A DNA stretch of 52,766 nt, taken from Moorena sp. SIO1G6. Lineage in GTDB: Bacteria; Cyanobacteriota; Cyanobacteriia; Cyanobacteriales; Coleofasciculaceae. Location: contig NZ_JAAHFZ010000014.1 in assembly GCF_010672795.1 (NCBI RefSeq), forward strand, positions 1 to 52,766, written 5' to 3'. Below are positions 890 through 52,762 of the stretch, piece by piece (positions within the stretch are counted from its first letter, which is position 1; every line of letters begins with the position of its first letter). The position numbers and the translations under genes were made by a program. The notes beneath the pieces are model-generated. The model was not told the origin of the DNA, made no database searches, and worked only from the letters and a program-made list of their open reading frames with translations.

Positions 890-1285
890 AAAGAACAAGC
901 AACAAAGAACAAGTATTCAGCTTATGTGCTACGCACACGCGTGCGCGTTCAGCGGTCAGCTATCAGCGGTCAGCTCAAGTAACTCAGCTTAAACCAATGC
1001 TTACCTGTTTTATTGTAAGCATTCAGTGGTCAGCCGTGAACATTGGCCTTTGAGTCACGCTACGCGAATGGCTCACTCTACTTCAGGTGCCGTCAGAATA
1101 AAAGAAACCTAAGCAGCTTAAGTAGCGTGCTAATAGCTCATAAGCTGATAACTGATAGCCCATAAGCTGATAACTGATAACTGATAGCTGATAGCTGATA
1201 GCTGATAGCTGAATACTTACCAAAGAACAAATGACTATAATCAGTAACCAGTAACCTAAATAACCAATCACCAATCACAACCAAT
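890..1285. repeat. Cluster of short tandem repeats (STRR-like heptamers such as CTGATAG/CTGATAA, CAGCGGT, AACCAGT, CAATCAC)
   Basis: The repeats are directly visible, e.g. ctgataactgatagctgatagctgatagctgatagctg at 1150-1210 and cagcggtcagctatcagcggtcagc at 950-975. Confidence 0.8.
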
Positions 1286-1286
1286 C

Positions 1287-1502
1287 ATGACTTACTTTCG
1301 TAAACGTCTCTCTCCGATCAAACCCGATGAACCGATCGACTATAAAGATGTTGAGTTGCTGCGCAAGTTTATCACTGAACGGGGAAAAATCCTACCCCGC
1401 CGCATTACTAATCTAACGACTCAACAACAACGAAAGCTAACCACAGCCATTAAGCGAGCAAGGTTCTTGGCTTTGCTACCCTATATTAATAAAGAAGGTT
1501 AA
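1287..1502 (+). CDS. rpsR: 30S ribosomal protein S18
   Basis: 71 aa, ...[49 protein letters not shown], an S18 signature. Confidence 0.9.
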
Positions 1503-1565
1503 GGTGAACAATCACGGTCTTCCTCTGGGATATTTCCCGTGTGAAGAATGAAATATCAAATAAGA

Positions 1566-1760
1566 AGGATGAAGGATGAAGGATGAAGGATGAAATGGGG
1601 TGATCGATGGCTGAGGCGCGCGATGCAGTGGCCTCACGGGGAATTCCCCCACTCGCGCTCTGCATCAAGACATGGTTAACTAAAAACTTGCGACCCAACC
1701 AGGAGTTACACTGACCACTGACAACTTCAGACTTCAGACTTCAGACTTTAGACTTGACCC
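1566..1760. repeat. Heptamer tandem repeats (GAAGGAT x4 and CTTCAGA x4) flanking nested palindromes, including GGGGAATTCCCC
   Basis: gaaggatgaaggatgaaggatgaa at 1566-1595. Nested inverted repeats at 1598-1665 (gaggc..gcctc, gatgcag..ctgcatc, ggggaattcccc). acttcagacttcagacttcagactttagactt at 1717-1750. Confidence 0.75.
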
Positions 1761-1845
1761 CGTCTGCTGAGTTGGGTATCTCAACAACACAGGATAGACT
1801 GGGGGGAGGTGGATTTGGTAAACGCTACCCGGGTTATCAGAACTG

Positions 1846-3903
1846 GTGGAAAAGGGAACACTAATCGAATTTCGCTTACAAGGAGAACGCCATCTCGCTG
1901 TTGTCGATCGTCCAGAGGGCAAGAACCACTTGATTGCTTTGGATCAACGGGGGAAACTGCACAAGCTCCATCCTCGACAAGTCACCTACACAGTGGCAGA
2001 TTCTACTTATGAGCCATCACAAATACCAGAGTTTATTGCTCGAGTACAACCCTATCTAGACCCAGATAGCTTAGAATTAGCTTGGGAATTACTGGTGGAA
2101 GAAGGAGAGGCGGTTACCTGTGCTGACATGGCACAGTTATTATTTTCTGAGCAAAGTCCACCCCAGTGCTATGCGGCACACTGTATTCTGTTTGAAGACA
2201 AAATCTATTTTAAACAAAAAGCACAAACCTATGAACCCCGCTCCGCTAGCATGGTGGCTGAAATCAAGCATCAACTGGCAGCGGCTCAATCAAAGCACCA
2301 GGAACAAGAAGAATTTTTGAAGCGAGTACAGCAAAAGTTAGGGGGTGAGCAAGTAGAGTGGGTTGATAGCGATCGCACTCGCTTTGATGCTCTAGAACGG
2401 TTCGTTAGTGAACCAGATAAACCATCTCGTGCAGTTCAGGAAACTCTGGAAGCACTAAAACGCCCTCAAAACCCAGAAAATGCCTTCGATTTATTGATAA
2501 ATTTGGGTTTGTGGCGTCCTCACCAGAAGTACTTGCTGCGTCATAAAATCCCAACTCAATTTCGTCGTGAGGTACTCGAATTGACCCAGCAATACCTGGC
2601 AAATCCTCCTACTGACCCAGATTCAGATCGCTTGGATTTAACTCATCTGAAACTCTACACCATAGATGATGAAAGTACCCAAGAAATAGATGATGGTTTG
2701 AGTATAGAAGATCTAGAGGATGGCACTCAGCGTCTGTGGATTCACATCGCTGACCCAACCCGCTTGGTAATGCCAGGGGATAATCTTGACCTAGAAGCAC
2801 GACGGCGTAGTACCACCATATATCTACCCACGGGCATGATTCCCATGTTCCCATCGGAACTGGCAACTGGTCCAATGAGTTTGGTTCAAGGTCAAGTCTG
2901 TGGCGCACTCAGTTTTGGCGTGATCTTGGATCAAGATGGTGCCATCTATGACTATCAGATTCACCCCAGCCTGATTAAACCCACCTATCGCCTGACTTAT
3001 GAAGATGTAGATGAAATGTTGCAGTTAGGGGTACAGGCAGAAACAGAACTGTTTGCGATCGCTAACTTGGCTGTGCGTCGGCAAAAGTGGCGCAAGTCTC
3101 AGGGGGCGATTAGCATCCATATGCCAGAGTCGGTAATCAAGGTGGGAAATGATGACCAAATTACCATTGAGGTGTTAGAAGATTCACCATCACGGCAAAT
3201 GGTGGCAGAAATGATGATTCTGGCAGGTGAAGTGGCTGGACGCTATGGTCAAGCGCACCAAATTCCACTACCATTCCGAGGACAACCCCAGCCAGAACTT
3301 CCATCCCAAGAAGAACTGCTGCTATTGCCAGCCGGTCCAGTGCGGTTCTGTGCCATGCGTCGGTGTATGCCTAGAAGCGAAATGAGCATTACCCCAACAC
3401 GCCACGCTAGTTTGGCTTTGGAAACTTACACCCAGGTAACCTCTCCGATCCGCCGCTACACTGACTTAATGACTCATTTCCAGCTGAAAGCTCATCTACG
3501 GGGTGACCCCCTACCCTTTGAAGCTGAAGATTTGCTCGAAACGATGCAGAGTGTAACCAGAACAGCTAAGGATGCTAGTGAAGTAGAACGTGATACCAAC
3601 AAATATTGGGGATTGGAATATTTGCGGCGTAACCCGAATCAGGTTTGGCAAGTATTAGTACTCAGTTGGTGGCGAGAAAACGAGAATAAGGGCAACATTC
3701 TCCTAGAAGAGTTAGGTCTAGAATTGCCCATGCGTTTCCAGCGTTCGGTTCAATTAGGCGATCGCTTACACGTCAAAGTCAGTCATGCTGATCCCCGTAA
3801 AGAAGTTATTCATTTTCAAGAACTAGCGAACTCAGAGGCTCAGCTTCCTTTTAACTCAAAGCTAGAAGATGGCTCAGCTTCTGCTGTGAACAGATTCGCG
3901 TAA
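1846..3903 (+). CDS. rnb: RNB-family 3'-5' exoribonuclease (RNase II/R-like) with C-terminal S1-like region
   Basis: 685 aa. The RNB catalytic core motifs are present (YTIDDESTQEIDDGLS, HIADP, ...TSPIRRYTDLMTHFQL). The start appears to be GTG; the exact start is uncertain. Confidence 0.8.
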   Translation: MEKGTLIEFRLQGERHLAVVDRPEGKNHLIALDQRGKLHKLHPRQVTYTVADSTYEPSQIPEFIARVQPYLDPDSLELAWELLVEEGEAVTCADMAQLLFSEQSPPQCYAAHCILFEDKIYFKQKAQTYEPRSASMVAEIKHQLAAAQSKHQEQEEFLKRVQQKLGGEQVEWVDSDRTRFDALERFVSEPDKPSRAVQETLEALKRPQNPENAFDLLINLGLWRPHQKYLLRHKIPTQFRREVLELTQQYLANPPTDPDSDRLDLTHLKLYTIDDESTQEIDDGLSIEDLEDGTQRLWIHIADPTRLVMPGDNLDLEARRRSTTIYLPTGMIPMFPSELATGPMSLVQGQVCGALSFGVILDQDGAIYDYQIHPSLIKPTYRLTYEDVDEMLQLGVQAETELFAIANLAVRRQKWRKSQGAISIHMPESVIKVGNDDQITIEVLEDSPSRQMVAEMMILAGEVAGRYGQAHQIPLPFRGQPQPELPSQEELLLLPAGPVRFCAMRRCMPRSEMSITPTRHASLALETYTQVTSPIRRYTDLMTHFQLKAHLRGDPLPFEAEDLLETMQSVTRTAKDASEVERDTNKYWGLEYLRRNPNQVWQVLVLSWWRENENKGNILLEELGLELPMRFQRSVQLGDRLHVKVSHADPRKEVIHFQELANSEAQLPFNSKLEDGSASAVNRFA

Positions 3904-4080
3904 ATCTCTGTCCTTTTATAAAAATCCCCCAAAGCCGAAAACCCCGTGTCTAATGACCGGGGATGAAGGCTCACAGCGGCTTGACGCGCCTAGAAAAATA
4001 TTTCAGGAAAATCCGGAATTTTAGTCTGGATGTTGTAAAATAAGGGAGTGAACAGTTTAGGTCCCAGACGAAACCTTAGA

Positions 4081-4150
4081 ATAGGGTCGCCTTTATGGTT
4101 TGTCGGCTATGGAAAAAGGGTTAAAACTGTTGTTATAAGGCGACCCTATT
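4081..4150. repeat. Perfect 13-bp-stem hairpin (ATAGGGTCGCCTT...AAGGCGACCCTAT) with a ~44-nt conserved loop, 24 bp upstream of the tnpB start; candidate IS left-end subterminal hairpin
   Basis: Seen directly. The loop is nearly identical to the loop of the hairpin at 4960-5033, while the two stems differ in sequence but both pair perfectly (compensatory change). Confidence 0.6.
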
Positions 4151-4173
4151 CTTACGGTAACTTTAAGAAGCTG

Positions 4174-5520
4174 ATGATCATTTTAGAGTTCAAGGCGAAA
4201 GGAAAAAAACATCAATACTCTGGGATCAACGAGGCTATCCGGACAGTCCAGTTCATCCGTAATAGCTGCCTCAGGTATTGGATGGAAAATAAAGGGGTCA
4301 ACAAATTTGACCTTAATAAGTACAGTGCAGTCCTTGCTAAAAACTTTCCTTTTGCTAATGAATTAAACTCTACTGCTCGTCAGTCTAGTGCTGAAAGAGC
4401 ATGGTCATCAATTGTTCGATTCTTTGATAACTGCAAGAAAAAAGTACCTGGAAAGAAAGGTTTTCCTAAGTTCCAGAAAAACTGCCGCTCAGTGGAGTAT
4501 AAACAGTCTGGATGGAAGTTATCCCCTGACAAGAAGTCAATCACCTTTAGTGATAAAAAGGGTATTGGGAAGCTTAAGCTTAAAGGTACATGGGACTTGT
4601 GGCGCTTGGATAAAAAGGAAATAAAGCGAGTCCGTATAGTTCGCCGGGCTGATGGTTATTATGTCCAGTTTTGTGTTTCAGTTGATATCAAAGAGGAACT
4701 AGAGCCAAGTGGGACAGCTATCGGCTTGGATGTTGGACTAAAATATTTTTACACTGATTCCGCTGGAAAAACTGAACCAAATCCCTGCTTTTACAGAACG
4801 GGAGAAAAACGCCTTAAGTTCTACCAGCGTCGAGTTTCTCGCAAGAAGAAAGGCTCATCCAATCGAAATAAAGCAGTTAATAGACTAGGCAGACAGCACC
4901 TTAAGATAAGTAGGCAACGTGAAGAGAACGCCAAGAGACTGGGAACGAAGTTACCGTAAGAATAAAGAAGCCTTTATGGTTAGTCGGCTATGCATAAAAG
5001 GGTTAAATCTTTGTTATTAAGGCTTCTTTATTCTAAGGTTTCGTCTCCGGCGCGCTGCGTAATCTGTTCTAACGATCTGGTCGCCTAGGTCGACTTAAGA
5101 GCCAAGAACCTAGTAAAAAATCACTGCCTCGCTAAGTCTATTAATGATGCAGGTTGGTATCAGTTTAGGAAATGGATGGAGCACTTTGGCACCAAGTTCG
5201 GAAAGGTAACAGTTGCAGTAAATCCTGCATATACCAGCCAAAACTGTTCCAATTGTGGCGAAGAAGTTAAAAAGTCCCTATCAACTAGGACTCATACGTG
5301 CAAGTGTGGTTGTCAGTTAGATAGAGACCACAACGCCGCAATAAACATCCTTAAGAAAGCCTTGGGTACGGTGGGGCACACCGGAACCTGGATCTTAAAA
5401 GATCTAAACGCTTCAGGAGAATCGGCCTCTACTGTTCTTGGTTCCGGCCAGGTTCAGCAAGCTGGCTCGTTGAATGAAGAATCCCCGCGTATGCGCGACC
5501 GGGGAGTGTCAAAAAACTAG
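4174..5520 (+). pseudogene. tnpB: tnpB (IS605 OrfB / RNA-guided nuclease family) disrupted by a ~130-bp hairpin-containing insertion plus a small deletion
   Basis: The N-terminal part (4174-4959) begins MIILEFKAKGKKHQYSGINEAIRTVQFIRNSCLRYWMENKG, a typical cyanobacterial TnpB N-terminus. The C-terminal part (about 5090-5520, a different frame) reads VDLRAKNLVKNHCLAKSINDAGW...NPAYTSQNCSNCGEEV...CKCGCQLDRDHNAAINIL, i.e. the RuvC-II region, zinc finger and RuvC-III region. About 10-15 residues are missing between the two pieces. Confidence 0.75.
4960..5033. repeat. Second copy of the conserved-loop hairpin (15-bp perfect stem GAATAAAGAAGCCTT...AAGGCTTCTTTATTC) sitting inside the disrupted tnpB
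   Basis: Seen directly. The loop tatggttagtcggctatgcataaaagggttaaatctttgttatt compares with tatggtttgtcggctatggaaaaagggttaaaactgttgttat at 4094-4137. Confidence 0.6.
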
Positions 5521-5533
5521 AAAGCTTGCTTTG

Positions 5534-7108: not shown

Positions 7109-7259
7109 AAGAATCTGGCTTATCAGTAAATAGCTAAGTCTTTAAAAGTAGGCAATAAAATAAATTTTTATTGACTAAAACCAGTCTATTAAGTTAGATT
7201 AATTAGTTAAATTAATTAGTTATTTAGTTAACTGTTTGCTAAAAATCCATGCATGAATT

Positions 7260-7334
7260 TCCTATTCCCTGTTCCCTGTTGCCACAACTACTGATTTAAC
7301 AATTTAATTTAACAATTTAACAATTTAACAATTG
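7260..7334. repeat. Short tandem repeats (CCCTGTT x2; AACAATTTA x4)
   Basis: tcctattccctgttccctgtt and taacaatttaatttaacaatttaacaatttaacaatt. Confidence 0.7.
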
Positions 7335-7335
7335 A

Positions 7336-10032: not shown

Positions 10033-10258
10033 AATTACTTACCCACAATTCCATATAACTTTATTGTCTTCTGAAATTACTAGCCACTATAGTGATCTTT
10101 ATCTTATTGGGATGTGATCTAAATCACTGATGAGGTGGATTGGTACTCTCTGACATATATATTACATATATATTATATGCCTTTTGGACTTAACTCAGAA
10201 AGCTTAACCTCAACGGAAGAAGCTATGCCGTTTCAAGGGTTAGAGGTATTGAAGTTTA

Positions 10259-10377
10259 GGTGCGACCCGTTCGCGTAGCGTTGGCAAAGCCAATAGGTGC
10301 GACCCAAGGGCGATTTATTCGCCCTTGGAGGCGCGCACCAATAGGTGCGAATTTAATTCTTAATGGGTCAAGCGCAC
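10259..10377. repeat. Cluster of 2-3 copies of the GGTGCG...CGCACC MITE-like element, plus one copy of the GTTCGCGTAGCG dispersed repeat
   Basis: ggtgcgacccaagggcgatttattcgcccttggaggcgcgcacc at 10297-10339, ggtgcgaatttaattcttaatgggtcaagcgcacc at 10344-10377, and a partial ggtgcgacccgttcgcgtagcg at 10259-10279. Confidence 0.7.
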
Positions 10378-10724
10378 CTAAGGCAGTTATAAGGACATAC
10401 TGCTTAGTACTACTTGCCTCTACACCCTAGTTAACGTTATACTTATCTAAGGCTAAACATTTGGCTCAAGCCTATAACAAAAAGTATTATATTTCTATGT
10501 CAGGGCAGCTCTATTTAGTTAACGTAACAAAAATTATTAAAATTTAATCCCTACTTATAGGCATCAACTGAGCCATGCTCTTAGCAACTTAGACCATCGG
10601 AAATGAAAAATAAATTACTTAACTTGAAAAAAAGTAATATATGATACATTTTGATGGTAAGTTTAATGAAGATTTCAAAAACCATTAGCAATCTGTAAAG
10701 ATTCGGCAAAGTCTATCAGAAGTG

Positions 10725-11387: not shown

Positions 11388-14303
11388 ATGGCAATCACTG
11401 TAGAGGAAATATTAACACCAGACATCAACAGACCAGCCCGTTACTTAGGTAACGAGTTGGGAGCAGTCCATAAACCTTGGGAAGAAGCTGAGGTACGCTG
11501 GGTATTGACTTATCCAGAAATCTATGAAGTGGGGGCTTCTAACTTAGGCCATATCATCCTCTACAATATATTGAATTATCAACCTAGGCAATTATGCGAT
11601 CGCGCCTATCTACCTGCCCCAGACTTGGCAGCTAAATTACGTTCCACTCAAACCCCTCTGTTTGCTGTCGAGAATCGGCGACCTCTGAAAGATTTTGATA
11701 TTATTGGCTTTAGCCTTAGCTATGAATTAGGGGCAACCAACATCTTGGAAATGTTGGATTTGGGAGGAATTCCCCTGACCTGGAAAGACCGTGCTCAGTT
11801 TGATATATCGGAAATACCCCTAATTTTTGCAGGTGGACAAACGGCGACATCGAATCCTGAACCCTATGCTGATTTCTTAGATTTTGTTGATCTTGGCGAT
11901 GGGGAAGAATTGTTGCCAGAGATTGGCTTAGTAATCGAAGAAGGCAAAGCAGCTGGCTTAAGTCGAGAAGCGTTACTCCTGGATTTGGCTCAGATACCAG
12001 GGGTGTATGTCCCCCAATTCTATGATATGACTGAGGATGGCTCAGTTAAACCCAACCGCCCTGATGTGCCGAAGCGGATTTTGCGGCGTGTGGCTACACC
12101 GATGCCTGCCTATGCTATTGGACTAGTACCCTATATCCAAACGGTTCATGACCGACTCAAGATCGAAGTGCGACGGGGCTGTACTCGGGGTTGTCGCTTC
12201 TGCCAACCTGGGATGCTGACTCGACCAGCGCGGGATGTGGAACCAGAAAAAGTGGTGGAAGCTATTGAACAAGGGATGCGTGCTACAGGGTATAACGAGT
12301 TTTCCCTTCTATCCCTGAGTTGTTCGGATTACCTGGCTCTACCAGCGGTGGGGATGGAAATCAAAAATCGTCTTAAGGATCAGAATATTTCCTTGTCCCT
12401 ACCGAGTCAGCGGGTAGACCGCTTTGATGAGAATATTGCCAATATCCTAGGGGGCAATCGGCAGAGTGGCTTGACCTTTGCCCCAGAAGCAGGAACTCAG
12501 CGGATGCGGGATATTGTTAATAAGGGACTGACTAATGAAGAACTGCTCAGGGGAGTAAAGACGGCATTTGAGCAAGGCTGGGAGAAAGTCAAGCTCTATT
12601 TTATGATTGGTTTGCCCGGTGAAACGGATATGGATGTGTTGGGGATTGCGGAAACGGTGCGTTGGTTGCAGCAGGAGTGCCGTGCTAAAGGCAGAAAAAC
12701 CATTAAGTTTAACATAACTGTTTCTAATTTTACCCCAAAACCTCACACCCCATTCCAGTGGCATTCCGTATCGACTTCGGAGTTTGAACGCAAGCAGGAA
12801 TTACTCAAACAAGTATTTGGTCAGATCAGGGGGGTGAAGGTTAATTACACCGATGTTCGGATTTCGGCCATGGAAGATTTCGTGGGACGGGGTGACAGAC
12901 GCTTAAGTGCGGTGGTGCGCCGTGCTTGGGAATTGGGGGCAGGGATGGACTCCTGGATGGAAAGCTTGGATCGGGCATTTGCTGCTTGGGAAAATGCGAT
13001 CGCTTCATCAGGTCTGACCTGGAAATATCGCCAAGTAGAAAATGGCGAATGGAACGTGATGGCGGGTGTAGAAGAGTTGCAAGTTGGAAGGTTGTTCGCG
13101 AAGCGTGGCCAAAAGGCCAAGGTTGAAAGTTCAGAGCAACCAGCTAACCTACAACCAGCTAACCGACAACCAACTAACCGACAACCAACTAACCTTCAAC
13201 CAACTAACCTTCAACCAGCTAACCTTCAACCAACTAACCTTCAACCAACTAACCTTCAACCTTCTAACCTTCAACCTTCTAACCTTCAACCTTCTAACCT
13301 TCAACCTTCTAACCTTCAACCTTCTAACCTTCAACCAGCTAACCTTCAACCAGCTAACCTTCAACCGTCAACCCTTAACGCCCTTGATGCTCCCTTGCCT
13401 TGGGATCATATTGATACGGGAATTGATAAGAATTGGCTCAAGGAAGATTTACAACGGGCGTTAGATGCAGCAACGGTACCGGATTGTTCCTTTGATGGGT
13501 GTTCTCACTGTGGTGTGTGTGGGATTGATTTTGGTCATAATGTGGTGATTGACCCGCCACAGATTCCGCAATTTGCTGGTCACTTTAAACCCAATACTAA
13601 TAAGGATCAGCGGCTGCGGGTTTGGTTTGGAAAGTTGGGGGATATGACCTTGTTGGGTCATCTGGATTTGGCAAGTCTGTTTGAGAGAGCAGTAAGACGG
13701 GCGTCACTGCCAATTCGATATAGTGGGGGGTTTCGGGCTAATGCTCGGATTATGATTGCTAATGCGTTGCCCTTGGGAGCGTCTAGCAGTGGGGAGATTG
13801 TGGAGTTTGAGTTAACTGAGAAAATGCCAGTTGAGGAGTTTAGGGAAAGGCTGGTGTCTCAGTTGCCTAAAGAGATTCCGGTGTATGGGGTTGAAGCAGT
13901 GGATTTGAAGGAACCTGCGGGAACTCAGCTGTTGGAGAGAGCTGAGTATTTGATTCGAGTTGAGGTAATATCAGAAGCGTCTTGGGAAGAGTGGCAGGGT
14001 TGGATTGAAGCAATCAAAGGTAGTAAGGAAATTTGGTGGGAGCGGTTTACGAAGTCGGGGAAGAAGCAGTGGGTGAATTTATGCGATCGCTTATTTGACT
14101 TCGAGGTGATCGAACCCCAAAAATCCAAAGATGGTGAAGAGGAGGTTGCGGAGTCTGGGGTGGTTTTGCGGTATGTGGGGAGTTGTTTGAATGATGGCAC
14201 GATGTTGCGACCAGAGCACATTATTTATATGTTGGAGCAGGTGGCGCAGCGGGAGTTTCGTTTGTTGCATGTTCATCGGCAACGGTTGATTCTGCGCAAT
14301 TGA
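11388..14303 (+). CDS. Fused radical-SAM protein (B12-binding-like N-domain + radical SAM core, TIGR03960-type) joined by a repeat linker to a TIGR03936/DUF2344-like C-terminal domain
   Basis: The start MAITVEEILTPDINRPARYLGNELGAV is typical. The Cys cluster is CTRGCRFCQPG. After the in-frame NLQPT tandem repeat the C-terminal module carries CSHCGVCG. Confidence 0.8.
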   Translation: MAITVEEILTPDINRPARYLGNELGAVHKPWEEAEVRWVLTYPEIYEVGASNLGHIILYNILNYQPRQLCDRAYLPAPDLAAKLRSTQTPLFAVENRRPLKDFDIIGFSLSYELGATNILEMLDLGGIPLTWKDRAQFDISEIPLIFAGGQTATSNPEPYADFLDFVDLGDGEELLPEIGLVIEEGKAAGLSREALLLDLAQIPGVYVPQFYDMTEDGSVKPNRPDVPKRILRRVATPMPAYAIGLVPYIQTVHDRLKIEVRRGCTRGCRFCQPGMLTRPARDVEPEKVVEAIEQGMRATGYNEFSLLSLSCSDYLALPAVGMEIKNRLKDQNISLSLPSQRVDRFDENIANILGGNRQSGLTFAPEAGTQRMRDIVNKGLTNEELLRGVKTAFEQGWEKVKLYFMIGLPGETDMDVLGIAETVRWLQQECRAKGRKTIKFNITVSNFTPKPHTPFQWHSVSTSEFERKQELLKQVFGQIRGVKVNYTDVRISAMEDFVGRGDRRLSAVVRRAWELGAGMDSWMESLDRAFAAWENAIASSGLTWKYRQVENGEWNVMAGVEELQVGRLFAKRGQKAKVESSEQPANLQPANRQPTNRQPTNLQPTNLQPANLQPTNLQPTNLQPSNLQPSNLQPSNLQPSNLQPSNLQPANLQPANLQPSTLNALDAPLPWDHIDTGIDKNWLKEDLQRALDAATVPDCSFDGCSHCGVCGIDFGHNVVIDPPQIPQFAGHFKPNTNKDQRLRVWFGKLGDMTLLGHLDLASLFERAVRRASLPIRYSGGFRANARIMIANALPLGASSSGEIVEFELTEKMPVEEFRERLVSQLPKEIPVYGVEAVDLKEPAGTQLLERAEYLIRVEVISEASWEEWQGWIEAIKGSKEIWWERFTKSGKKQWVNLCDRLFDFEVIEPQKSKDGEEEVAESGVVLRYVGSCLNDGTMLRPEHIIYMLEQVAQREFRLLHVHRQRLILRN
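13138..13375 (+). repeat. In-frame 15-bp tandem repeat (~16 copies, AACCTTCAACC[A/T][A/T]CT) encoding (N-L-Q-P-[TAS])n inside the radical-SAM fusion
   Basis: Seen directly. The ORFs 13084-13464(+) and 13149-13364(-) are out-of-frame readings of the same repeat. Confidence 0.9.
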
Positions 14304-14410
14304 GAAATTTGGCGTTGCTGAATTAAGGTATGATTGGCTAAAAATGTGGCGTTGCTGAATCAATCAATGAATATGAGTGGGGTGGACATCCTGCCTGCCC
14401 AAAAAGATCC

Positions 14411-14455
14411 GGTGCGCTTGACCCATTAAGAATTAAATTCGCCACGGGTCGCACC
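14411..14455. repeat. MITE-like palindromic element copy (GGTGCGCTTGACCCATTAAGAATTAAATTCGCCACGGGTCGCACC)
   Basis: Same family as 20-63 and 48666-48711. Confidence 0.7.
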
Positions 14456-16167: not shown

Positions 16168-16641
16168 ATGAATACAACTGAGCGTAAAACAGAGAAGAAA
16201 ATGGAAGTGCCTAGAACAACTAGTGAAGTGATTCGCATCAAGCCCCAACAGTTTATTCATGTGCTAGACAACAATACTGGTGTTACGCGACTGGAGGTTG
16301 GTCCTCAAACCATTACCCTTCGGGATCACGAGCGGCTGATCTTAAAACCTGAACCGATGATTATTGTGCCGCCTCGATATTATTGTGTGGTGGCTAATCC
16401 ATTACTCCGGGATGAAGACGGTCAACCCATTGCTGATCAGCATGGTCAAATTCGACTGCGCTACGGTGATCTGGAAATTCGTTTCGCGCAAGATCCGTTT
16501 CCCCTTTATCCAAACGAGAAACTGGTAGGGGATTTGACACTCCCCGTTCTTCTAGGACGGGGAGTGTCAAAGGCAGAAAATATAGCCATTGAGTCTACAG
16601 GTCAGGCAACAGCAGAAGCAAGAGCTAAGGAATACTCTTAA
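16168..16641 (+). pseudogene. Major vault protein (MVP) homolog, N-terminal fragment (MVP repeat 1-2)
   Basis: IRIKPQQFIHVLDNNTGVTRLEVGPQTI...VPPRYYCVVANP...[27 protein letters not shown] aligns almost residue-for-residue with the N-terminus of eukaryotic MVP ([28 protein letters not shown]...VPPRHYCTVANP...[27 protein letters not shown]). The homology ends near 16533-16560, where the IS-associated palindrome begins. Confidence 0.7.
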
Positions 16642-18329
16642 ACCGTCATCAATCGGGATAAAACCGAATAAAACGGCCAAGGTGCATTTTATTGATGTCT
16701 GAGTGAGGAGCGGTCAAGTAGCAATTGGAGTCAAGCCTCCCGCTCATCTATCTAGACGTTCCTCACATCCCGGTGAGGAGTTCCTTAAAAGCTTGAGTTT
16801 TGGCATGCTTGCGGTCAAGCCATCCTAGCTTAACCGCGTCAGCTAAAGTCAAATCCATACCTTCTAAGAAACGCGCAGTACGACGCAACAATACTGCCTG
16901 CACTTCAACCCTAGTCATAAACCGGGAGATTCCTTGATCTGTACCACGAGCAAGGATATTCTTCGCAGCATTGTGATCAGCCTGCAACACGACCCCATTA
17001 AATCTGATAAAACTGTCCCCAATCCTTGCTCCCAATAAGGTGCCAGAAAAGGAGTCAATTTGCGACGTGTAGCTTGGCTGGACTTCTGTCACAACCGAAC
17101 CAGTCCAATTAGCCCATTTCTGCAAGGAGTACCGCATTTCTCCTTTCATCCAGCTATTCAACTTGCGAGACATAGCCTTTGACTGGCGTTTATTTTTGAT
17201 TGGTTGCGTTAAATCCTCAGCAAAAATTCTTAGAGATTCTCCTTTGAAGAGGGATTTAGAAGCAGCCCCTATAATCGCCCTCAACTCTGATTGATCTCTT
17301 CTGTAACGACTGTTTTCTGTTTTTCGACTCAGATTATTTTTCAGTATCCGAGCTGATTTAGCTGGATCTATTTTTTCTAGCTTCCTATGTATTGCCCAGA
17401 GCTTTCCTCTGTTCCGATTTTTGGCGCATATTCGATGGCCAAAAGGCCACGCTACGCGAACGGATTTTATGGTTGCTATTTTGCCCAGGTTCTTCCCGTG
17501 TGCCTGACCATCTGAATCATAAAAAGCCTCGGTGTATCCCTTGTCTACTCCTATCGCTCGACGTTCAGGAGGAATCTCAGCTGTCCCGTGATTAACCAAA
17601 AAATGAATCTCAAATCTTGCCAGTAGAGAGTTGTATATTAGTCTAATCTGTCCTTTAATATTTCGATTAGACCTAACTATTAGTTTGTTTCTTTTTCCTC
17701 TTCTGATTCCAGCTAATTCCAATTGATAAGTATAACGAGACAATCGTTTACACGAGTATCCTCCTTGTTGGTATACAACTTGATTCTTGACCCAAGAATG
17801 TCCTCTCTGAAACTCTTTCCTTACAAGTCTGTGCAATAGTGGATTATCCAGAAAAGCTGAAGTTTTGAGTTGCTTAGAGATATCCTTTCTGATCTTCTGG
17901 TTTTCCTTTCCAGGAAACCTCTTATAGATCTTTTTTATGACTGCCTCAATGGAAGCCGCTTGTTGAGCTGTGATAGTTTTAGCTACATCACTGACAGTCC
18001 ATTCCATTAACTTGGAAGGCAAGCCCAGGGACTCAGGCTTCCTGAAGTCCCTGACTTCTGGGTAGGCTTTTTTCCAGTCAAGTCCCCAATGACTTATACT
18101 ACCCAGCTTGTTGTAAGACTCAGACCTGACGACGCCTAGTTTTTTCATCGTAGACAACAGCTCAAGCTCAACCGACTTAGCTATCCCTACAACTGGGACG
18201 ACCTGAGTCGATATCTTCTTTACTGCGCCTACTTTCTTTTGCATCATCAACGGTGTGTACAGCTTTTGCTATATACTGCCATTATAGTCTAGCGCTATAA
18301 AATTGTCAATGTCCAGTTCGCACTATTAA
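16533..18329 (-). mobile_element. IS200/IS605-family TnpB-only element inserted in the MVP gene (the ends are approximate)
   Basis: tnpB lies on the minus strand. The 14-bp perfect palindrome TTTGACACTCCCCG..CGGGGAGTGTCAAA at 16533-16571 shares CGGGGAGTGTCAAA with the 3' end of the other TnpB element (5500-5513). MVP-homologous coding sequence resumes at about 18340. Confidence 0.5.
16763..18250 (-). CDS. tnpB: TnpB-like RNA-guided endonuclease / IS605 OrfB-family transposase accessory protein (long form, zinc-finger cysteines absent)
   Basis: 495 aa. A RuvC-like triad is spaced in the standard way (AIGVDKG ... RIFAEDLT ... VLQADHNAAKNIL). No Cys pairs lie between RuvC-II and RuvC-III. No tnpA is present. 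Confidence 0.7.
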   Translation of the reverse strand: MMMQKKVGAVKKISTQVVPVVGIAKSVELELLSTMKKLGVVRSESYNKLGSISHWGLDWKKAYPEVRDFRKPESLGLPSKLMEWTVSDVAKTITAQQAASIEAVIKKIYKRFPGKENQKIRKDISKQLKTSAFLDNPLLHRLVRKEFQRGHSWVKNQVVYQQGGYSCKRLSRYTYQLELAGIRRGKRNKLIVRSNRNIKGQIRLIYNSLLARFEIHFLVNHGTAEIPPERRAIGVDKGYTEAFYDSDGQAHGKNLGKIATIKSVRVAWPFGHRICAKNRNRGKLWAIHRKLEKIDPAKSARILKNNLSRKTENSRYRRDQSELRAIIGAASKSLFKGESLRIFAEDLTQPIKNKRQSKAMSRKLNSWMKGEMRYSLQKWANWTGSVVTEVQPSYTSQIDSFSGTLLGARIGDSFIRFNGVVLQADHNAAKNILARGTDQGISRFMTRVEVQAVLLRRTARFLEGMDLTLADAVKLGWLDRKHAKTQAFKELLTGM

Positions 18330-21282: not shown

Positions 21283-21298
21283 ATAATTTGGTTTCAAG

Positions 21299-21436
21299 AC
21301 TATGCGATTAGCCCGAAGGGCTACGCTACGCTCCGGAAGCGTTTCGGCAAAGCCGACGCTACGCGAACGCAAAGCGTGGCCTACGGCCTCAGCTTCCGCG
21401 CTTATGCGATTAGCCCGAAGGGCTACGCTACGCGAT
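21299..21436. repeat. Composite repeat: two copies of TATGCGATTAGCCCGAAGGGCTACGCTACGC flanking copies of the GCTACGCGAACG / GCGTGGCCTACGGCC dispersed repeat
   Basis: Seen directly. The ORFs 21202-21480(-) and 21302-21523(+) are artefacts of this repeat. Confidence 0.75.
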
Positions 21437-22040
21437 CGCATCCTTAGAGCTCCGAATCCCCCGATTTCAGATAAATCCATACAGCAAGCAAATTTTTGTC
21501 AAACTAATTCTCAAACTAACTAGACACCCTTAGCAAAATACTATATACTATATAATAGTGGCATTATGACAGTTGCTTTTTCAGCAACTGGTTAGCTCCT
21601 TGTGCTGTGGGCTAAGAATTAGGTTCGAGGCAAGACAATATACACAGCATATCAGGTGTTTTTTTTGGCATCAGGGCTAAAGTAGGTCAAAGACAGTTAG
21701 GTTTAAACAACTCCAATCGGTTCTTGGGTCTACTTTGGGTCAATAAGTGCTTACACTTTCGTGGATCAAGGGATACTGAGTTATTAACAACTTAAGTCCC
21801 AGCGAAGTCAGGCGAGTTTAATAGCCTTTTCTGACCAGTAAACGCAATTGAACGAGAATCTAGCTCGACCATCATGCCGAGCTGGATAAAAGTGGGCTCT
21901 CTGCTTATTTTTTGAGGAGAGGTTTATCCACTATAAATACTGACCAGGTTTATAATGACCTGGTTTGTGGCACAAAGGGAATTCAGGTTCTTGAATATCC
22001 CTGCTGCCAGACTGCTGCAATGTCTACAAAGGAGAAACCA

Positions 22041-38011: not shown

Positions 38012-38225
38012 AGACTACACGTAACAAGATTGAAGAGGGGGTGAAGGTGACAGGTAACAAGCCTGAAGGCTACTTCTAGAGATAAGTAACATTCAATTTA
38101 ATCTGTCAACCTACTAACCGACAAGGGCTCCTTGGGCTAGAACAACCTGTGTAGCGTGGGCCTTAAGGCCAAGCTACAAGAGACAACCTTTCAACCCAAC
38201 CGTAAACCTGATATTGATTGAACCG

Positions 38226-38675: not shown

Positions 38676-38680
38676 AACTA

Positions 38681-41012: not shown

Positions 41013-41032
41013 TACCAAGTTAGGTGACTCTC

Positions 41033-41061: not shown

Positions 41062-41200
41062 ATTCTGATGGAATTGATTGCGGTATTAGCCGCATTTGTC
41101 ACAAAAAGAGCGTTCGCGTAGCGTGACCTTTGGTCAATCGCGCTTACCTAAAAGCCTTACCTGATCTGGATTTAATCAAAGTGAAGCCCAGACTCGAAGA

Positions 41201-47358: not shown

Positions 47359-47393
47359 CCGATGATTCCTTTTGAATACCCATTATTAAAGGG

Positions 47394-47444
47394 TGGGGAG
47401 ATGGGGAGATGGGGAGATGGGGAGATGGGGAGATGGGGAGATCA
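47394..47444. repeat. Octamer tandem repeat (GGGGAGAT x6)
   Basis: gggtggggagatggggagatggggagatggggagatggggagatcag. Confidence 0.85.
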
Positions 47445-47601
47445 GTTGCGTAGGCTGCTCTAGGGAAGGGCTCGCTCTGATTTTCCGCCTTTTTGCGCCT
47501 TGTTGAGACAATCCGCCCGAAAATTTAAACGGGCAAGATTCCCGTTCCACCGACCGGGTCAAACAGCTTTTAGGAGATACACCCACAAACTCAGACAGGG
47601 G

Positions 47602-48438: not shown

Positions 48439-48504
48439 GAGATGACCTCAATTTTTCCGACTGATGAGTTTGATCTTAGCAACTGCCGGTAAGCATTTAG
48501 CCCT

Positions 48505-48560
48505 CAGCTGTCAGCTGTCAGCTGTCAGCCATCAGCTGTGCTCCCTGTTCCCTGTTCCCA
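48505..48560. repeat. Heptamer tandem repeats (CAGCTGT x4; CCCTGTT x2)
   Basis: cagctgtcagctgtcagctgtcagccatcagctgtgctccctgttccctgttccc. The CCCTGTT repeat also occurs at 7266-7283. Confidence 0.8.
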
Positions 48561-48665
48561 AAGCGTACCCCCGTTTCCCTTATAAAAGAGGGACTTTGAG
48601 CTTGAGAAGCGTACCTCATACATCCCATAAACGCTATATTGGACTTTCCTGCTCCCGACTCCCTC

Positions 48666-48711
48666 GGTGCGCTTTCCGCATCTAATTATTAAATTCGCCA
48701 CGGGTCGCACC
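48666..48711. repeat. MITE-like palindromic element copy (GGTGCGCTTTCCGCATCTAATTATTAAATTCGCCACGGGTCGCACC)
   Basis: Same family as 20-63. The bases ggtgcgctttccg are identical to copy 1. Confidence 0.7.
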
Positions 48712-48769
48712 GCTCCCTACTCCTTTTACTTTATAATTATAGATAAACCAAAAAACAACTACCAATATC

Positions 48770-48952
48770 ATGCTAGATTGGTTAGCAGTTTGGGGAATTT
48801 CTAGTGCTGGTGGCTATCTCGCCAAAGAGGTGATTGGTCCCTTGGCAAAAGAGGCTCTAGAAGACTACACTAAAGAGTTTTTCAAAGAGTCTATCAAAGA
48901 GTATACTGGACTATCGGATCAAAATACCCAAAAATTTTTGGTCAAGCCTTAA
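48770..48952 (+). CDS. Small ORF (60 aa), possibly a fragment of a frameshifted N-terminal domain belonging to the downstream NACHT gene
   Basis: The ORF is followed by further protein-like ORF pieces in other frames up to 49168 (ALLEEELEDADLSKQKLKPYSKPLKQYIKHKSIKAILGSAFKYGC and IELDLLELPEGFDWHYVLYW). Confidence 0.25.
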   Translation: MLDWLAVWGISSAGGYLAKEVIGPLAKEALEDYTKEFFKESIKEYTGLSDQNTQKFLVKP

Positions 48953-49168
48953 AATAATTCGTGGCTTTATTGGAAGAAGAATTGGAAGATGCTGATTTAT
49001 CTAAGCAAAAATTAAAACCGTATAGTAAACCTCTCAAGCAGTATATTAAACATAAATCCATTAAAGCTATCCTGGGCAGTGCGTTCAAGTATGGCTGTTA
49101 AGGAATAGATACCGATATATTAGCGAAGACTTAGATTGAGCTTGACTTATTAGAATTACCGGAAGGAT

Positions 49169-52100
49169 TTGATTGGCACTATGTACTATATTGGTAAAAG
49201 CTATCTCAAGAAAGGAAAAAAAAAGAACAATAAGAAAGTAAAAAATAAAAATATTATTCGGGAATCAGAGCAGTTACGGCCTATTCGAAATTCCCAAACC
49301 TTGGAAGCGATCGCAGAAAACACTAAACCAGAAATTACCCCAGATTTTGAATTAAAAAAATATCAGGAAGCACTCCTAGAGAGCTATGGTAATCTCAAAT
49401 TGGATAGTTTGGATACTAGTGGCTGTGCTTATAATGAACTAAAACTCTGGAATATATTTATCCACCAAAATGTGCAAGAGGTTCATGACTTGATGCCGGA
49501 GGGGATTCATGAACTGCCTAAGGATTATTATCAAAAACTGCAAGAGAGTGGTGAATTAGATATCGAAATTGACCAAAAGGAGTTGCAACGAGCTAGAAAG
49601 GATTATTATCAACAGCCAATTAAATCCGTATTGGATGTAATTAAGGACTCTCAAGGCTATCGCTATTTGGTGGTTTTAGGAGACCCAGGCTCTGGTAAAT
49701 CTACCTTGCTGCAATATTTAGCATTGGAGTGGGCAAGAACTGATCTAACTACTGAAAGTTCTCTACGGATTCCGTTACTGATTGACTTACCCACTTATAT
49801 CCGGAATCGCGATAGTGGACAGTGTCAGAATTTCTTGGAATTCTGCCATCAAAGTAGTGGAACGATATGTCATCTCAATCAAAATAAACTTGATGATAAG
49901 TTAAAGGCGGGTATTGTCTTAGTGATGTTTGATGGCTTGGATGAAGTGTTTGAGCCAGGGAAACGAGAGGATATAATTACTGATATTCATCGCTTTACGA
50001 ATAATTATCCTAAGGTAAGAGTAATTGTGACATCTCGGGTAATTGGTTATAAACCTCAACGGCTACGGGATGCTGATTTTCGTCATGTAATGCTCCAAGA
50101 CTTGGAGTCGGAACAAATTCAAACGTTTATCCAGCAGTGGCATGAGTTAACCTTTACTGATCAAGTCGATAAAGTTAGGAAACAGGAGCGCTTACAAAAA
50201 GCAATAAAGACATCCTCTCGGATTCGAGAACTGGCGCAAAATCCCCTATTACTAACCATGATGGCAATCCTGAACCGCAATCAAGAATTGCCTCGTGACC
50301 GCTCTGAACTCTATAACCAATCTTCTCGGTTACTGCTCCATCAATGGGATGTGGAACTAGCATTACTAGAAGATAATCCTGTTGATCCGAAGACTATTGA
50401 TTATCAAGATAAGCAACAGATATTGGGAAAAGTGGCAGATTTCATGCAGGGTAATCAAGGGGGATTAGCGGGAAATCTGATTAGTGGGGAAGATTTAGAA
50501 AGAATTATCAAAGAGGAGCTGAAATTACGGGAGGTTACTAATCCTAAAGCTGTTGCTAAGGTAATGATTAATCAGTTGTGTACCCGCAATTTTATCTTCT
50601 GTTCAATGGGAGCCAATTACTACGCTTTTGTGCATCGGACATTTTTGAACTATTTCTGTGCTCGGGAATTGGTCAGGAAATTTGAGAAAAAGCAGGAGAT
50701 TTCCCTAGCACAGTTGAAAACTGAGGTATTTGGTAAGCACTGGCGGGATGAATATTGGCATGAAGCGCTCCAGTTGATTGTGGGCATGGTTGATTCTACC
50801 AAAGCTGGAGAGATTATTGAGTATTTGATGGAACAAGGTGGAGTAGAGGATGATTTTAATAATTTATTTCTGGCAGGGGATTGTTTATCTGAGGTTAGGA
50901 ATCGGTATGAGATTAAATCAACGAATATTGGATTACTGAATCGCGTCAAAGACTTAATTCATTATGATCTAAATTCTACTGATAACAAGTATGGAGATGA
51001 GGCCAACTTAGTCCGTGATATTCGCACTAAAGCTGTTGTAGCAGTAGCCACCCATTGGCAAGACCACCGAGATACCTTAGCCCTACTTAAAAAATTGGCT
51101 CGCTCGGATGCTGATAGGTATGTGCGAGTTAGAGCAATTGAACAGTTAGTTCAAGGTTACAAAGACCACCGAGATACCTTAGCCCTACTTAAAAAATTGG
51201 CTCGCTCTGATACGGATTTGTGGGTGCGAGCTACAGCAATTGAACAGTTAGCTAAAGGTTACAAAGACCACCGAGATACCTTAGCCATACTTCAAGAATT
51301 GGCTCGCTCTGATACGGATTTGTGGGTGCGATGTAGAGCAATTGAACAGTTAGCTAAAGGTTACAAAGACCACCGAGATACCTTAGCCATACTTAAACAA
51401 TCGGCTCGCTCTGATACTGATTCGGAGGTGCGAATTACAGCAATTGAACAGTTAGCTCAAGGTTACAAAGACCACCAATATACCTTAGCACTACTTGAAC
51501 AATCGGCTCGCTGTGATACTGATTCGGAGGTGCGAGTTAGAGCAATTGAACAGTTAGTTCAAGCTTACAAAGACCACCTAGATACCTTAGACATACTTCA
51601 AGAATTGGCTCGCTATAATACTGATTCGTGGGTGCGAGGTACAGCAATTGAACAGTTAGCTAAAGGTTACAAAGACCACCGAGATACCTTAGCCATACTT
51701 AAACAATCGGCTCGCTGTGATCAAGATTGGCAGGTGCGAGTTAGAGCAATTGAACAGTTAGCTCAAGGTTACAAAGACCACCGAGATACCTTAGCCCTAC
51801 TTCAAGAATTGGCTCGCTGTGATACTGATTCGGATGTTCGATGTAAAGCAATTGAACAGTTAGCTAAAAGTTACAAAGACCAGCGAGATACCATAGCCAT
51901 ACTTCAAGAATTGGCTCGCTCTGATACTGATTCGTGGGTAAGAATTACAGCAATTGAACAGTTAGCTAAAGGTTACAAAGACCACCGAGATACCATAGCC
52001 CTACTTCAACAATGGGCTCGCTGTGATACTGATTCGTGGGTACGAGTTACAGCAATTGAACAGTTAGCTAAAGGTTACAAAGACCACCGAGATACCATAG

Positions 52101-52762
52101 CCCTACTTCAACAATGGGCTCGCTATAATACTGATTCGAGTGTGCGAGTTAGAGCAATTGAACAGTTAGCTAAAGGTTACAAAGACCACCGAGATACCAT
52201 AGCCCTACTTCAACAATGGGCTCGCTCTGATACTGATTGGCAGGTGCGATGTACAGCAATTGAACAGTTAGCTAAACGTTACCAAGACCACCGAGATACC
52301 TTGGCCCTACTTCAAGAATCGGCTCGCTCTGATACTGATTCGGATGTGCGAGTTACAGCAATTAAACAGTTAGCTAAACGTTACCAAGACCACCGAGATA
52401 CCTTAGCCCTACTTCAAGAATCGGCTCGCTCTGATACTGATTCGGATGTGCGAGGTAGAGCAATTGAACTGTTAGCTCAAGGTTGGCACGATCGCGTAGC
52501 GTGGCCTACGGCCAATCAGCCTTGGTTATTTGAATTTTTATGCGATCGCATTCTCCATGACCCCTATGATCCTAATAAGGATAAGAAAAACGTGATTGTC
52601 TATGGACTAGAAAACAATCCTCGACAAGCAGCCCTTAATGCCATCCTCAAATATTATCCTAACCATTCCCAAACCCGATCCTTATTACAGGATAGAGCAG
52701 AGCATGACTCCGATCCTGAACTGCGGAAGTTTGCTAAGGATAATTTAGAATGTAGAATTTAG
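49169..52762 (+). CDS. NLR-like STAND NTPase: NACHT domain + 14 tandem HEAT (PBS-lyase/E-Z type) repeats
   Basis: Walker A is VVLGDPGSGKSTLLQYLA and Walker B is VLVMFDGLDEV. The pre-NACHT motif is KKYQEALLESYGNLKLDSLD. Then come 14 units of the 34-aa repeat HRDTLALLxxLARSDTDxxVRxxAIEQLAKGYKD. The true start is uncertain: the first ~25 codons are K-rich translated A-tracts, and the first ATG is at 49181. Confidence 0.8.
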   Translation: MIGTMYYIGKSYLKKGKKKNNKKVKNKNIIRESEQLRPIRNSQTLEAIAENTKPEITPDFELKKYQEALLESYGNLKLDSLDTSGCAYNELKLWNIFIHQNVQEVHDLMPEGIHELPKDYYQKLQESGELDIEIDQKELQRARKDYYQQPIKSVLDVIKDSQGYRYLVVLGDPGSGKSTLLQYLALEWARTDLTTESSLRIPLLIDLPTYIRNRDSGQCQNFLEFCHQSSGTICHLNQNKLDDKLKAGIVLVMFDGLDEVFEPGKREDIITDIHRFTNNYPKVRVIVTSRVIGYKPQRLRDADFRHVMLQDLESEQIQTFIQQWHELTFTDQVDKVRKQERLQKAIKTSSRIRELAQNPLLLTMMAILNRNQELPRDRSELYNQSSRLLLHQWDVELALLEDNPVDPKTIDYQDKQQILGKVADFMQGNQGGLAGNLISGEDLERIIKEELKLREVTNPKAVAKVMINQLCTRNFIFCSMGANYYAFVHRTFLNYFCARELVRKFEKKQEISLAQLKTEVFGKHWRDEYWHEALQLIVGMVDSTKAGEIIEYLMEQGGVEDDFNNLFLAGDCLSEVRNRYEIKSTNIGLLNRVKDLIHYDLNSTDNKYGDEANLVRDIRTKAVVAVATHWQDHRDTLALLKKLARSDADRYVRVRAIEQLVQGYKDHRDTLALLKKLARSDTDLWVRATAIEQLAKGYKDHRDTLAILQELARSDTDLWVRCRAIEQLAKGYKDHRDTLAILKQSARSDTDSEVRITAIEQLAQGYKDHQYTLALLEQSARCDTDSEVRVRAIEQLVQAYKDHLDTLDILQELARYNTDSWVRGTAIEQLAKGYKDHRDTLAILKQSARCDQDWQVRVRAIEQLAQGYKDHRDTLALLQELARCDTDSDVRCKAIEQLAKSYKDQRDTIAILQELARSDTDSWVRITAIEQLAKGYKDHRDTIALLQQWARCDTDSWVRVTAIEQLAKGYKDHRDTIALLQQWARYNTDSSVRVRAIEQLAKGYKDHRDTIALLQQWARSDTDWQVRCTAIEQLAKRYQDHRDTLALLQESARSDTDSDVRVTAIKQLAKRYQDHRDTLALLQESARSDTDSDVRGRAIELLAQGWHDRVAWPTANQPWLFEFLCDRILHDPYDPNKDKKNVIVYGLENNPRQAALNAILKYYPNHSQTRSLLQDRAEHDSDPELRKFAKDNLECRI
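51053..52485 (+). repeat. 14 x 102-bp near-identical in-frame tandem repeats (HEAT-like) with variation confined to a few codons
   Basis: Seen directly. The units are >90% identical at the DNA level. The variable codons map to repeat positions ~9-10 (KK/QE/KQ/EQ/QQ), 12 (L/S/W), 15-16 (SD/CD/YN), 19-20 and 23-24 (RVR/RAT/RCR/RIT/RGT/RCK/RVT). Confidence 0.9.

Follow-up and report, generated by a model that had tools for sequence, protein, structure and literature searches.

The 52,766-nt contig NZ_JAAHFZ010000014.1 of the cyanobacterium Moorena sp. SIO1G6 (the window, meaning the whole stretch analysed) carries one short sequence over and over, in spacers as well as inside genes, which raises the question of what kind of element this repeat is. 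An earlier note, made from the letters alone, had described a dispersed family of about 19 nt, rarer by chance than the HIP1 octamer (highly iterated palindrome 1) of cyanobacteria, and had taken it for a mobile short element or a recombination or regulatory site. The family is real. The 13-mer core GCGTAGCGTGGCC, at up to 2 mismatches, has 11 matches in the 52.8-kb window against 0.50 expected from dinucleotide-preserving shuffles (n = 100, none of which reached 11), and for the 17-mer GTTCGCGTAGCGTGGCC, with as many as 3 mismatches allowed, the count is 8 against 0.02. Every site listed in the earlier note holds a copy, and the window contains 11 copies or remnants in all (Table 1), in both orientations, three of them inside genes. 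As detailed below, the repeat is likely to be a discrete mobile element of the small dispersed repeat (SDR) type that has strongly expanded in Moorena.

Anatomy and distribution of the repeat

The unit is not about 19 nt long but 24–26 nt, and it consists of an 11-nt tag, TTCGCGTAGCG (at times ATCGCGTAGCG), with a hairpin directly after it. Specifically, the hairpin runs through a T, 4–5 stem bases, a loop of 3–4 nt, the complementary bases and an A, giving a stem of 4–6 bp. The stems in the window are TGGCC/GGCCA, which is also the dominant stem in Moorena, TTGGC/GCCAA, TGACC/GGTCA, TCGGC/GCCGA and TAGCCC/GGGCTA; the hairpin is conserved in shape and not in sequence, its letters varying among copies with complementarity kept. 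A perfect hairpin of at least 4 bp directly follows the tag in 7 of the 8 window matches, compared with 0.15 in controls in which the downstream bases were shuffled. In 916 kb of other Moorena DNA the same holds for 266 of 378 tag matches, compared with 6.4 in shuffles, a rate that is unfiltered and independent of the covariation alignment; there, the unit measures 24 nt in 168 copies, 25 nt in 88 and 26 nt in 6. When the stems of 78 distinct 24-mers are aligned, all five pairs vary on both sides, and covariation scores 0.731, where shuffles give 0.149 and sliding the partners by 1–3 columns gives at most 0.10. Neither the unit size nor the covarying stem had been recognized in the earlier note.

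Folded as single-stranded DNA, the unit forms the main hairpin together with a tiny CGC-GTA-GCG hairpin within the tag, and almost every copy has its GTAG two bases 5' of the stem. The palindromic core proposed in the earlier note therefore holds for one half: GGCC-N3/4-GGCC is a true hairpin, but ACGCTACGCGAACG is no palindrome, and only its CGC-GTA-GCG pairs. The unit contains a stop codon in just one of its six frames (TTC GCG TAG), the other five being open. A second tag type, CACGCGTGCGCGTTCA, stands beside GGCC hairpins in the truA-rplM spacer of L198 and L204 (L numbers are our handles for Moorena sequences) and at about 940–960 of the window, within an insert that resembles a miniature inverted-repeat transposable element (MITE), which suggests that Moorena holds further related families of small repeats.

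In a scan of one genome per prokaryotic species, the stem subtype TCGCGTAGCGTGGCC-N3/4-GGCCA alone returned at least 120 stretches, a count above expectation; among the matches listed, all lie in five Moorena genomes, many of the stretches holding more than one copy or tandem arrays of up to 12, and the scan is informative for Moorena alone and not for other genera. Extrapolated from the density of tag matches in the window (8 per 52.8 kb) and not counted directly, a 9-Mb genome would hold about a thousand copies. Viral contigs scanned with a 14-base generic pattern gave 70 single matches, which a rough estimate puts at chance level at most. Outside Moorena, the tag TTCGCGTAGCG also occurs, with other stems, in a 340-kb replicon sample of Nostoc sp. 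UHCC 0926, in Calothrix PCC 6303 and on a Chondrocystis plasmid. The hairpins after the tag in Nostoc sp. UHCC 0926 are TCTC-GTA-GAGA and TCCC-GTA-GGGA, one copy splitting a HIP1, and the Chondrocystis copy reads GCGATCGC-GTAGCG-hairpin-ATCGC; 200 kb of the Nostoc punctiforme plasmid pNPUN01 held no recognizable copy. The family is thus common to Nostocales and Moorena, and in Moorena it has undergone a great expansion, with a dominant stem of its own.

Exact insertions in genes and spacers

The radical-SAM protein of the window is identical to one from Moorea (Moorena) sp. SIO1G6, and its PrfA region matches two NCBI Moorena assemblies at 99.5–100% identity. Setting orthologous regions of other Moorena genomes against the window reveals filled and empty versions of the same sites. 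The tnpB gene that strain JHB has at this chromosomal position is shorter by exactly 24 nt, the other 116 aligned bases being identical, and the empty site reads AATCCG^ATCGAA on the gene strand; the family has thus been active recently. In line with this difference, the TnpB protein reads KS-VRVAWPFGH-RIC in the window and KS-D-RIC in relatives. Across 120 members of this TnpB family, 10 have the insert at this first site, 7 have an RVAWP form at a second site and 103 have no RVAWP; two members with the first-site insert carry a VREAWPTA variant at the second site.

The radical-SAM gene offers a second case. The window has GGAAGGTTG-TTCGCGAAGCGTGGCCAAAAGGCC-AAGGTTGAAAG where JHB and SIOASIH have ...AAGGTTG-AAGGTTGAAAG, so that the insert is exactly 24 nt between two AAGGTTG heptamers, with no target bases duplicated. 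The encoded FAKRGQKA is present in 3 of 12 aligned Moorena orthologues and absent from 9. This copy lies in the stop-containing frame, yet GAAGCG replaces GTAGCG and the in-frame TAG is avoided; because GAAGCG variants are also seen in intergenic DNA, the copy may have arrived in that form. Elsewhere in the linker of this gene, in another orientation or frame, the repeat encodes WPKGHA in three strains and, in SIO4A1, five instances of GQKATLRE, and in SIOASIH a reverse copy lies between CAACCTT and CAACCCTT, its orientation to the heptamer unchanged.

In the NACHT gene, the window protein reads GWHD-RVAWPTAN-QPW and 11 of 11 other aligned homologues read GW(H/K)D-QPW, the insert being 8 codons in the HEAT-repeat region with the frame intact; the homologue P0245 has a repeat copy at another position. 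Linker, TnpB and HEAT-repeat region have each gained 8 residues with reading frames unbroken. Because a 24-nt unit is a multiple of three and five of its six frames are open, insertions into genes can survive as 8-residue additions. The genes named in the earlier note (radical SAM, here a radical-SAM/DUF2344 fusion, TnpB, NACHT/HEAT and PrfA) are assigned correctly, and its mobile element is borne out by exact presence/absence differences at several window copies in closely related Moorena.

Target and flank preferences were drawn from 275 distinct copies. The base 5' of the tag is G in 234 of them and the base 3' of the hairpin is A in 224. Flanks of the AAGGTTG type accompany 69 copies in sense and 2 in antisense. 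An exact GCG/copy/ATCGC arrangement, that is, a split HIP1, is found for 43 of the 275, most Moorena copies lying at other sites. The empty sites seen directly are GCG^ATCGC, CCG^ATCGA, ACG^ATCAG, GGTTG^AAGGTTG and, in the tag of another copy, GCG^AACGC. Insertion thus takes place between G and A (G^A), in a single orientation and with no target duplication, the preferred sites being HIP1 and HIP1-like sequences and the junctions of AAGGTTG-type heptamers. As the tag is itself HIP1-like, insertion into the tag of another copy results in nesting, which occurs at 21342–21388 of the window and in L076, L098 and L107. Copies also form tandem arrays with identical loops, of up to 12 copies (L108, 4096–4392). 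The period in such arrays (L108, L095, L097 and L147) is 30–45 nt, corresponding to the element plus one or two heptamers.

Intergenic sites vary among genomes as well. Between the Na/H-exchanger gene and the operon of ribosomal proteins lies a hypervariable spacer (21283–21440; L212–L219), with at least seven arrangements in nine genomes. In this 3' spacer of the exchanger gene, L216 has an intact HIP1, GCGATCGC, and in L213, whose sequence immediately upstream matches the window at 99.9% identity, a single 26-nt copy splits the same octamer, GCGAT/TAGCCCGAAGGGCTACGCTACGCGAA/CGC. A variant copy is present in L212 and L217, and further states are found in L214, L215, L219 and the window. The outer of the two nested copies at 21342–21388 is unbroken in L215, as TTCGCGAAGCGTGGCCAAAGGCC. 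The cluster at 21299–21436 does hold copies, as the earlier note had it, and there are four of them, where the note listed three pieces at 21355–21395; the 31-bp direct repeats it described are 100% identical (21301–21331 and 21403–21433). These 31-bp repeats match within each genome that has them and differ between genomes, a pattern of sequence that suggests local duplication or conversion.

Two further spacers hold older or shared copies. The truA-rplM copy, which the earlier note had missed, stands at the same place in 9 of 9 Moorena genomes compared, its sequence diverging, and its ancestral orientation is minus (GGCCAAAAGGCCACGCTACGCGAAC in L199). The copy in the prfA spacer is common to four genomes, L196 and JHB among them, with a different loop in JHB; SIOASIH has a second copy in tandem, and no clean empty site was found there, the four genomes that lack the copy lacking the whole larger block. 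Two ranges in the earlier note were off by 8–16 bases: the prfA-spacer copy lies at 41113–41136 instead of 41098–41120, and the NACHT copy at 52491–52514.

Table 1. Copies and remnants of the repeat in the window, in order of position
Position	Strand	Copy	Context
1044..1068	-	degenerate copy TTCGCGTAGCGTGACTCAAAGGCCA, stem decayed	rpmG-rpsR spacer, within MITE-like insert of ~310 bp
10270..10293	+	24 nt, stem TTGGC/GCCAA	nested in palindromic element TAGGTGCGACCC...GCGCACCTA; AGGTGCGACCC on both sides
13095..13118	+	24 nt, in frame, TTCGCGAAGCGTGGCCAAAAGGCC	radical-SAM linker, encodes FAKRGQKA
17437..17460	-	24 nt, in frame	inside tnpB, codon 264 of 495
21309..21331	-	stem TAGCCC/GGGCTA, tag truncated	right of HIP1 half GCGAT; within first 31-bp repeat
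21344..21367	-	24 nt, TTCGCGTAGCGTCGGCTTTGCCGA	nested in tag (TT^CGC) of + strand copy
21342-21343 plus 21368..21388	+	split copy, 3' part CGCAAAGCGTGGCCTACGGCC	broken by the 21344-21367 copy
21411..21436	-	26 nt, ATCGCGTAGCGTAGCCCTTCGGGCTA	splits HIP1, GCGAT/copy/CGC on + strand; within second 31-bp repeat
about 38147..38176	-	old diverged copy	truA-rplM spacer
41113..41136	+	24 nt, stem TGACC/GGTCA	downstream of prfA; GCG/copy/ATCGC (split HIP1)
52491..52514	+	24 nt, in frame	NACHT/HEAT gene

Two of the copies lie within larger inserts that are themselves polymorphic. The window and JHB share the MITE-like insert (912–1221, about 310 bp), which PAL and SIOASIH lack. Its ends, GTATTCAGC/GCTGAATAC, are inverted, with CAAAGAACAA on either side; it is packed with heptamer repeats, and holds two GTAGCG-hairpin modules with different 5' tags. 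At the 10270–10293 locus, SIOASIH has the palindromic element without the repeat copy, and PAL has neither. This small palindromic element, TAGGTGCGACCCGTGGCGAATTTAATTCTTAATGGGTCAAGCGCACCTA, recurs in the window at about 10256–10380, 14400–14450 and 48660–48710, and at its ends it is similar to the GTAGGGTGCG...CGCACCCTAC repeats found on the flanks of a RayT-like Y1 transposase gene, itself frameshifted, in another Moorena genome (L162, 144–1100). Judging from this resemblance, it may belong to a family of repetitive extragenic palindromic (REP) sequences, single or as inverted doublets (REPINs), of the RayT-like transposase of L162.

Other features adjoin the genes discussed above. The linker of the radical-SAM/DUF2344 fusion (window ~13130–13390) is built of a 15-nt repeat encoding QPxNL, the number of whose copies is different in almost all Moorena strains, the proteins being 882 to 971 residues long; close outgroups lack it. 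Beside the tnpB element (16168–18250) lies a fragment of 157 residues that carries a Major Vault Protein repeat (Vault_2), and SIOASIH has at the same place an intact homologue of the major vault protein, 879 residues long (L195, 17653–20292). From these sequences, the tnpB element, an insertion sequence (IS), appears to have disrupted a bacterial major-vault-protein gene in the window and JHB. A second TnpB-type IS, frameshifted, lies at 3921–5513 between the RNase II and ammonium-transporter genes, with open reading frames at 4048–4959 (OrfB_IS605) and 5176–5520 (TNB zinc-ribbon); it is absent from the orthologous loci of JHB, PAL and SIOASIH.

Known elements and competing explanations

A class of such elements has already been described, which the earlier note had overlooked. 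In 2008, Elhai et al. reportedly described the SDRs of Nostoc punctiforme as repeats of 21–27 nt with hairpins backed by compensatory changes, and these are said to lie in heptamer repeats, in mini-transposons and in their own copies, SDR5 only inside HIP1. The Moorena unit shares this description of SDR1–8: its 24–26 nt fall within the size range, it is dispersed and highly repeated, its hairpin has compensatory changes, and it gives evidence of recent mobility. Additionally, Moorena copies sit within heptamer repeats, MITE-like elements and copies of themselves. SDR5 is inserted between the 3rd and 4th nucleotide of HIP1 (PMC4390886); the Moorena unit is likewise inserted at GCG^ATCGC, although in Moorena HIP1 is not the exclusive target. 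It differs from the SDRs in its dominant stem, TGGCC/GGCCA, in an inserting unit of 24–26 nt compared with the 21 nt quoted for SDR5, and in its host. Moorena is a non-heterocystous genus of the Coleofasciculaceae, whereas SDRs were reported as confined to Nostocaceae, with no SDR-like repeat found beyond that family (PMC5861425); SDRs are also treated in bioRxiv 10.64898/2026.06.24.733823. The wider host range extends the reported distribution of SDRs and is not a structural mismatch. By architecture the repeat matches the SDR class, its likeness to the numbered families being one of description and not of consensus. Elements of this kind were thus known before; the novelty lies in the host lineage, in how far the family has expanded and in the clean insertion polymorphisms.

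Larger elements resemble the repeat in part. MITEs, such as Nezha in cyanobacteria, are likewise non-autonomous, dispersed and polymorphic among strains. They are longer than 100 nt and have terminal inverted repeats and target duplications; the Moorena unit has neither such repeats nor a duplication, and is often a passenger in MITE-like elements.

Could the copies instead be classical GTAG-tagged REP sequences of the proteobacterial kind, mobilized by a REP-associated tyrosine transposase (RAYT; Bertels and Rainey 2011, PMC3116915)? We regard this as unlikely. It would account for the GTAG two bases before the stem-loop, and a REP survey (Di Nocera et al. 2013, PMC3733652) describes GTAG-tagged families GTAG-12, -15 and -16 in Anabaena and Nostoc, with a dinucleotide separating GTAG from the stem in some families. 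High copy number, complementary stem subfamilies and occasional genic copies are further likenesses, as is the presence in Moorena of a RayT homologue. However, the Moorena stems of 4–6 bp are shorter than the 6–13 bp that the same survey gives for REPs, and the conserved tag is 11 nt compared with 4 nt. The Moorena repeat stands mostly as singletons, its multi-copy loci being direct, same-strand tandem arrays, with few of the inverted doublets (REPINs). Moreover, 3 of the 11 window copies are inside genes, and within the ~1.19 Mb examined no RAYT gene is flanked by the Moorena repeat (a REPtron), the only RAYT gene seen being flanked by GTAGGGTGCG-type repeats.

For SDRs, Elhai et al. reportedly suggested in 2008 that copies arise by way of RNA, through transcription, reverse transcription and integration. 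For the Moorena repeat this route appears quite improbable, even though many copies lie in transcribed regions and the composite at 21283–21450 folds well as RNA (z = -2.9). The stems are nearly pure Watson–Crick, with a single G–U pair in 390 cells of the alignment (about 1 of 22 non-paired cells, against 3–4 by chance). Stem variation of this kind is unlike selection on an RNA helix, and such a scarcity of G–U pairs suits helices of DNA better than those of RNA. Additionally, copies occur in both orientations to genes (sense in the three window genes, antisense as GQKATLRE in SIO4A1), and no associated reverse transcriptase was seen.

It is also rather improbable that no transposition is involved, and that the copies spread by gene conversion or template-switching through short flanking homology, followed by tandem duplication. 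The flanks of most copies are indeed identical to those of many others (AAGGTTG arrays or GCG/ATCGC), the identical-loop arrays reflect local duplication, the 31-bp repeats at 21301 and 21403 behave as in concerted evolution, and diverged tnpB paralogues carry the insert at one and the same site. Against this, the empty tnpB and NACHT sites (CCG^ATCGA and ACG^ATCAG) share only 2–5 bases with donor flanks, the block boundaries are equally sharp in unrelated contexts, and subfamilies with distinct stems are each dispersed.

That the repeat is a host motif under selection, serving as a terminator, as a site of protein binding or recombination, or as a target for methylation, is very improbable. 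Both GGCC and HIP1 are methylated in cyanobacteria, the stem structure is conserved, copies lie just 3' of genes (21283–21440 after the Na/H exchanger, 41113 after prfA), and the truA-rplM copy is kept in 9 of 9 genomes. But no window copy is terminator-like or has a T-run, Rfam gave no match, orthologous sites are mostly polymorphic for presence or absence, the truA-rplM copy is decaying, and in-frame copies are tolerated in three unrelated proteins. The regulatory site suggested in the earlier note finds no support in these observations. Finally, the idea that the copies are terminus fragments of one known IS, prompted by the copy inside the tnpB element and the two TnpB-type IS in the window, is rejected, since the tnpB copy lies in the interior of the gene, being a 24-nt insertion in its own right that the orthologous IS of JHB lacks exactly, and since four other documented sites show the unit inserted by itself.

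Mode of movement and significance

A mobile element of SDR type remains the reading that we consider likely, and no rival explains as well the sharp, duplication-free boundaries in unrelated contexts. Several observations nevertheless weigh against it. The covariation alignment was pre-filtered for stems with at least 4 of 5 positions complementary, so that its figure of 94.6% paired is inflated. The identical-loop tandem arrays clearly grew by local duplication and not by insertion. The radical-SAM insert is present in SIO4A1 and absent in the closer JHB, and one tnpB site holds the insert in paralogues with no more than 76–84% identity; together, these two patterns require recurrent insertion, precise excision or gene conversion. 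The copies show no strand bias with respect to local GC skew (83 vs 73, p = 0.47); a single-strand transposon that targets the lagging strand might show one, skew being a weak proxy in cyanobacteria. No mobilizing enzyme was identified: a tblastn search of ~1.19 Mb of Moorena DNA with E. coli RayT found a sole homologue (L162, 144–656; 43% identity over 171 residues, with a Pfam Y1_Tnp match), which is flanked by GTAGGGTGCG-type repeats, and the copies of the repeat nearest to it are more than 2 kb away.

With the anatomy, the covarying stem, the exact filled and empty sites without duplication, the target and orientation preference and the recent activity established, a model for the movement of this SDR-type element can be put forward. 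Because the unit cannot encode anything, it must be acted on in trans, and it would be moved by a host or IS-encoded enzyme, with the conserved tag and the shape-conserved, sequence-variable hairpin serving as the recognition signal. HUH/Y1 transposases (IS200/IS605 and RAYT) read hairpins by shape, use a short target, keep a fixed orientation and leave no duplication. As hairpin recognition, short target, fixed orientation and lack of duplication coincide in the Moorena repeat, we tentatively favour a single-strand DNA transposase of this sort, IS200/IS605- or RAYT-like, as a possible mover. Moorena has many TnpB-type IS. The likeness to IS200/IS605 elements such as IS608 (hairpin ends, a short adjacent target, fixed orientation, no duplication) would be one of mechanism only. 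Those elements are ~0.7–2 kb long, have a different hairpin at each end and encode TnpA, whereas the Moorena unit is 24 nt with one hairpin. It is conceivable, though doubtful, that 24-nt units are still moving in living Moorena, perhaps through a dedicated activity that cuts HIP1-type sites; the reason for supposing continued movement is that one copy differs between strains with 116 identical flanking bases.

To our knowledge, SDRs count among the candidates for the smallest of all known mobile DNA, and their mode of movement has gone unexplained since 2008. The Moorena repeat indicates that the class is not confined to Nostocaceae, and its clean filled and empty pairs, one with identical flanks, settle three points: the unit is 24 nt long, the cut falls at G^A, as it does inside HIP1, and no target bases are duplicated. 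In-frame insertion has repeatedly lengthened real proteins by 8 residues. In annotation, this accounts for length polymorphisms and odd motifs in Moorena proteins (RVAWP.., GQKATLRE, FAKRGQKA and WPKGHA), and it also explains the poor assembly and alignment of intergenic regions in these natural-product-rich genomes. If an activity that cuts HIP1 does exist, Moorena would tie the long-unexplained octamer to a concrete DNA transaction, and the dozens of sequenced Moorena strains would suit phylogenetic profiling for the enzyme behind the smallest known mobile DNA. The elements would then act as in-frame 8-residue cassettes that diversify TnpB and the NACHT/HEAT sensors.

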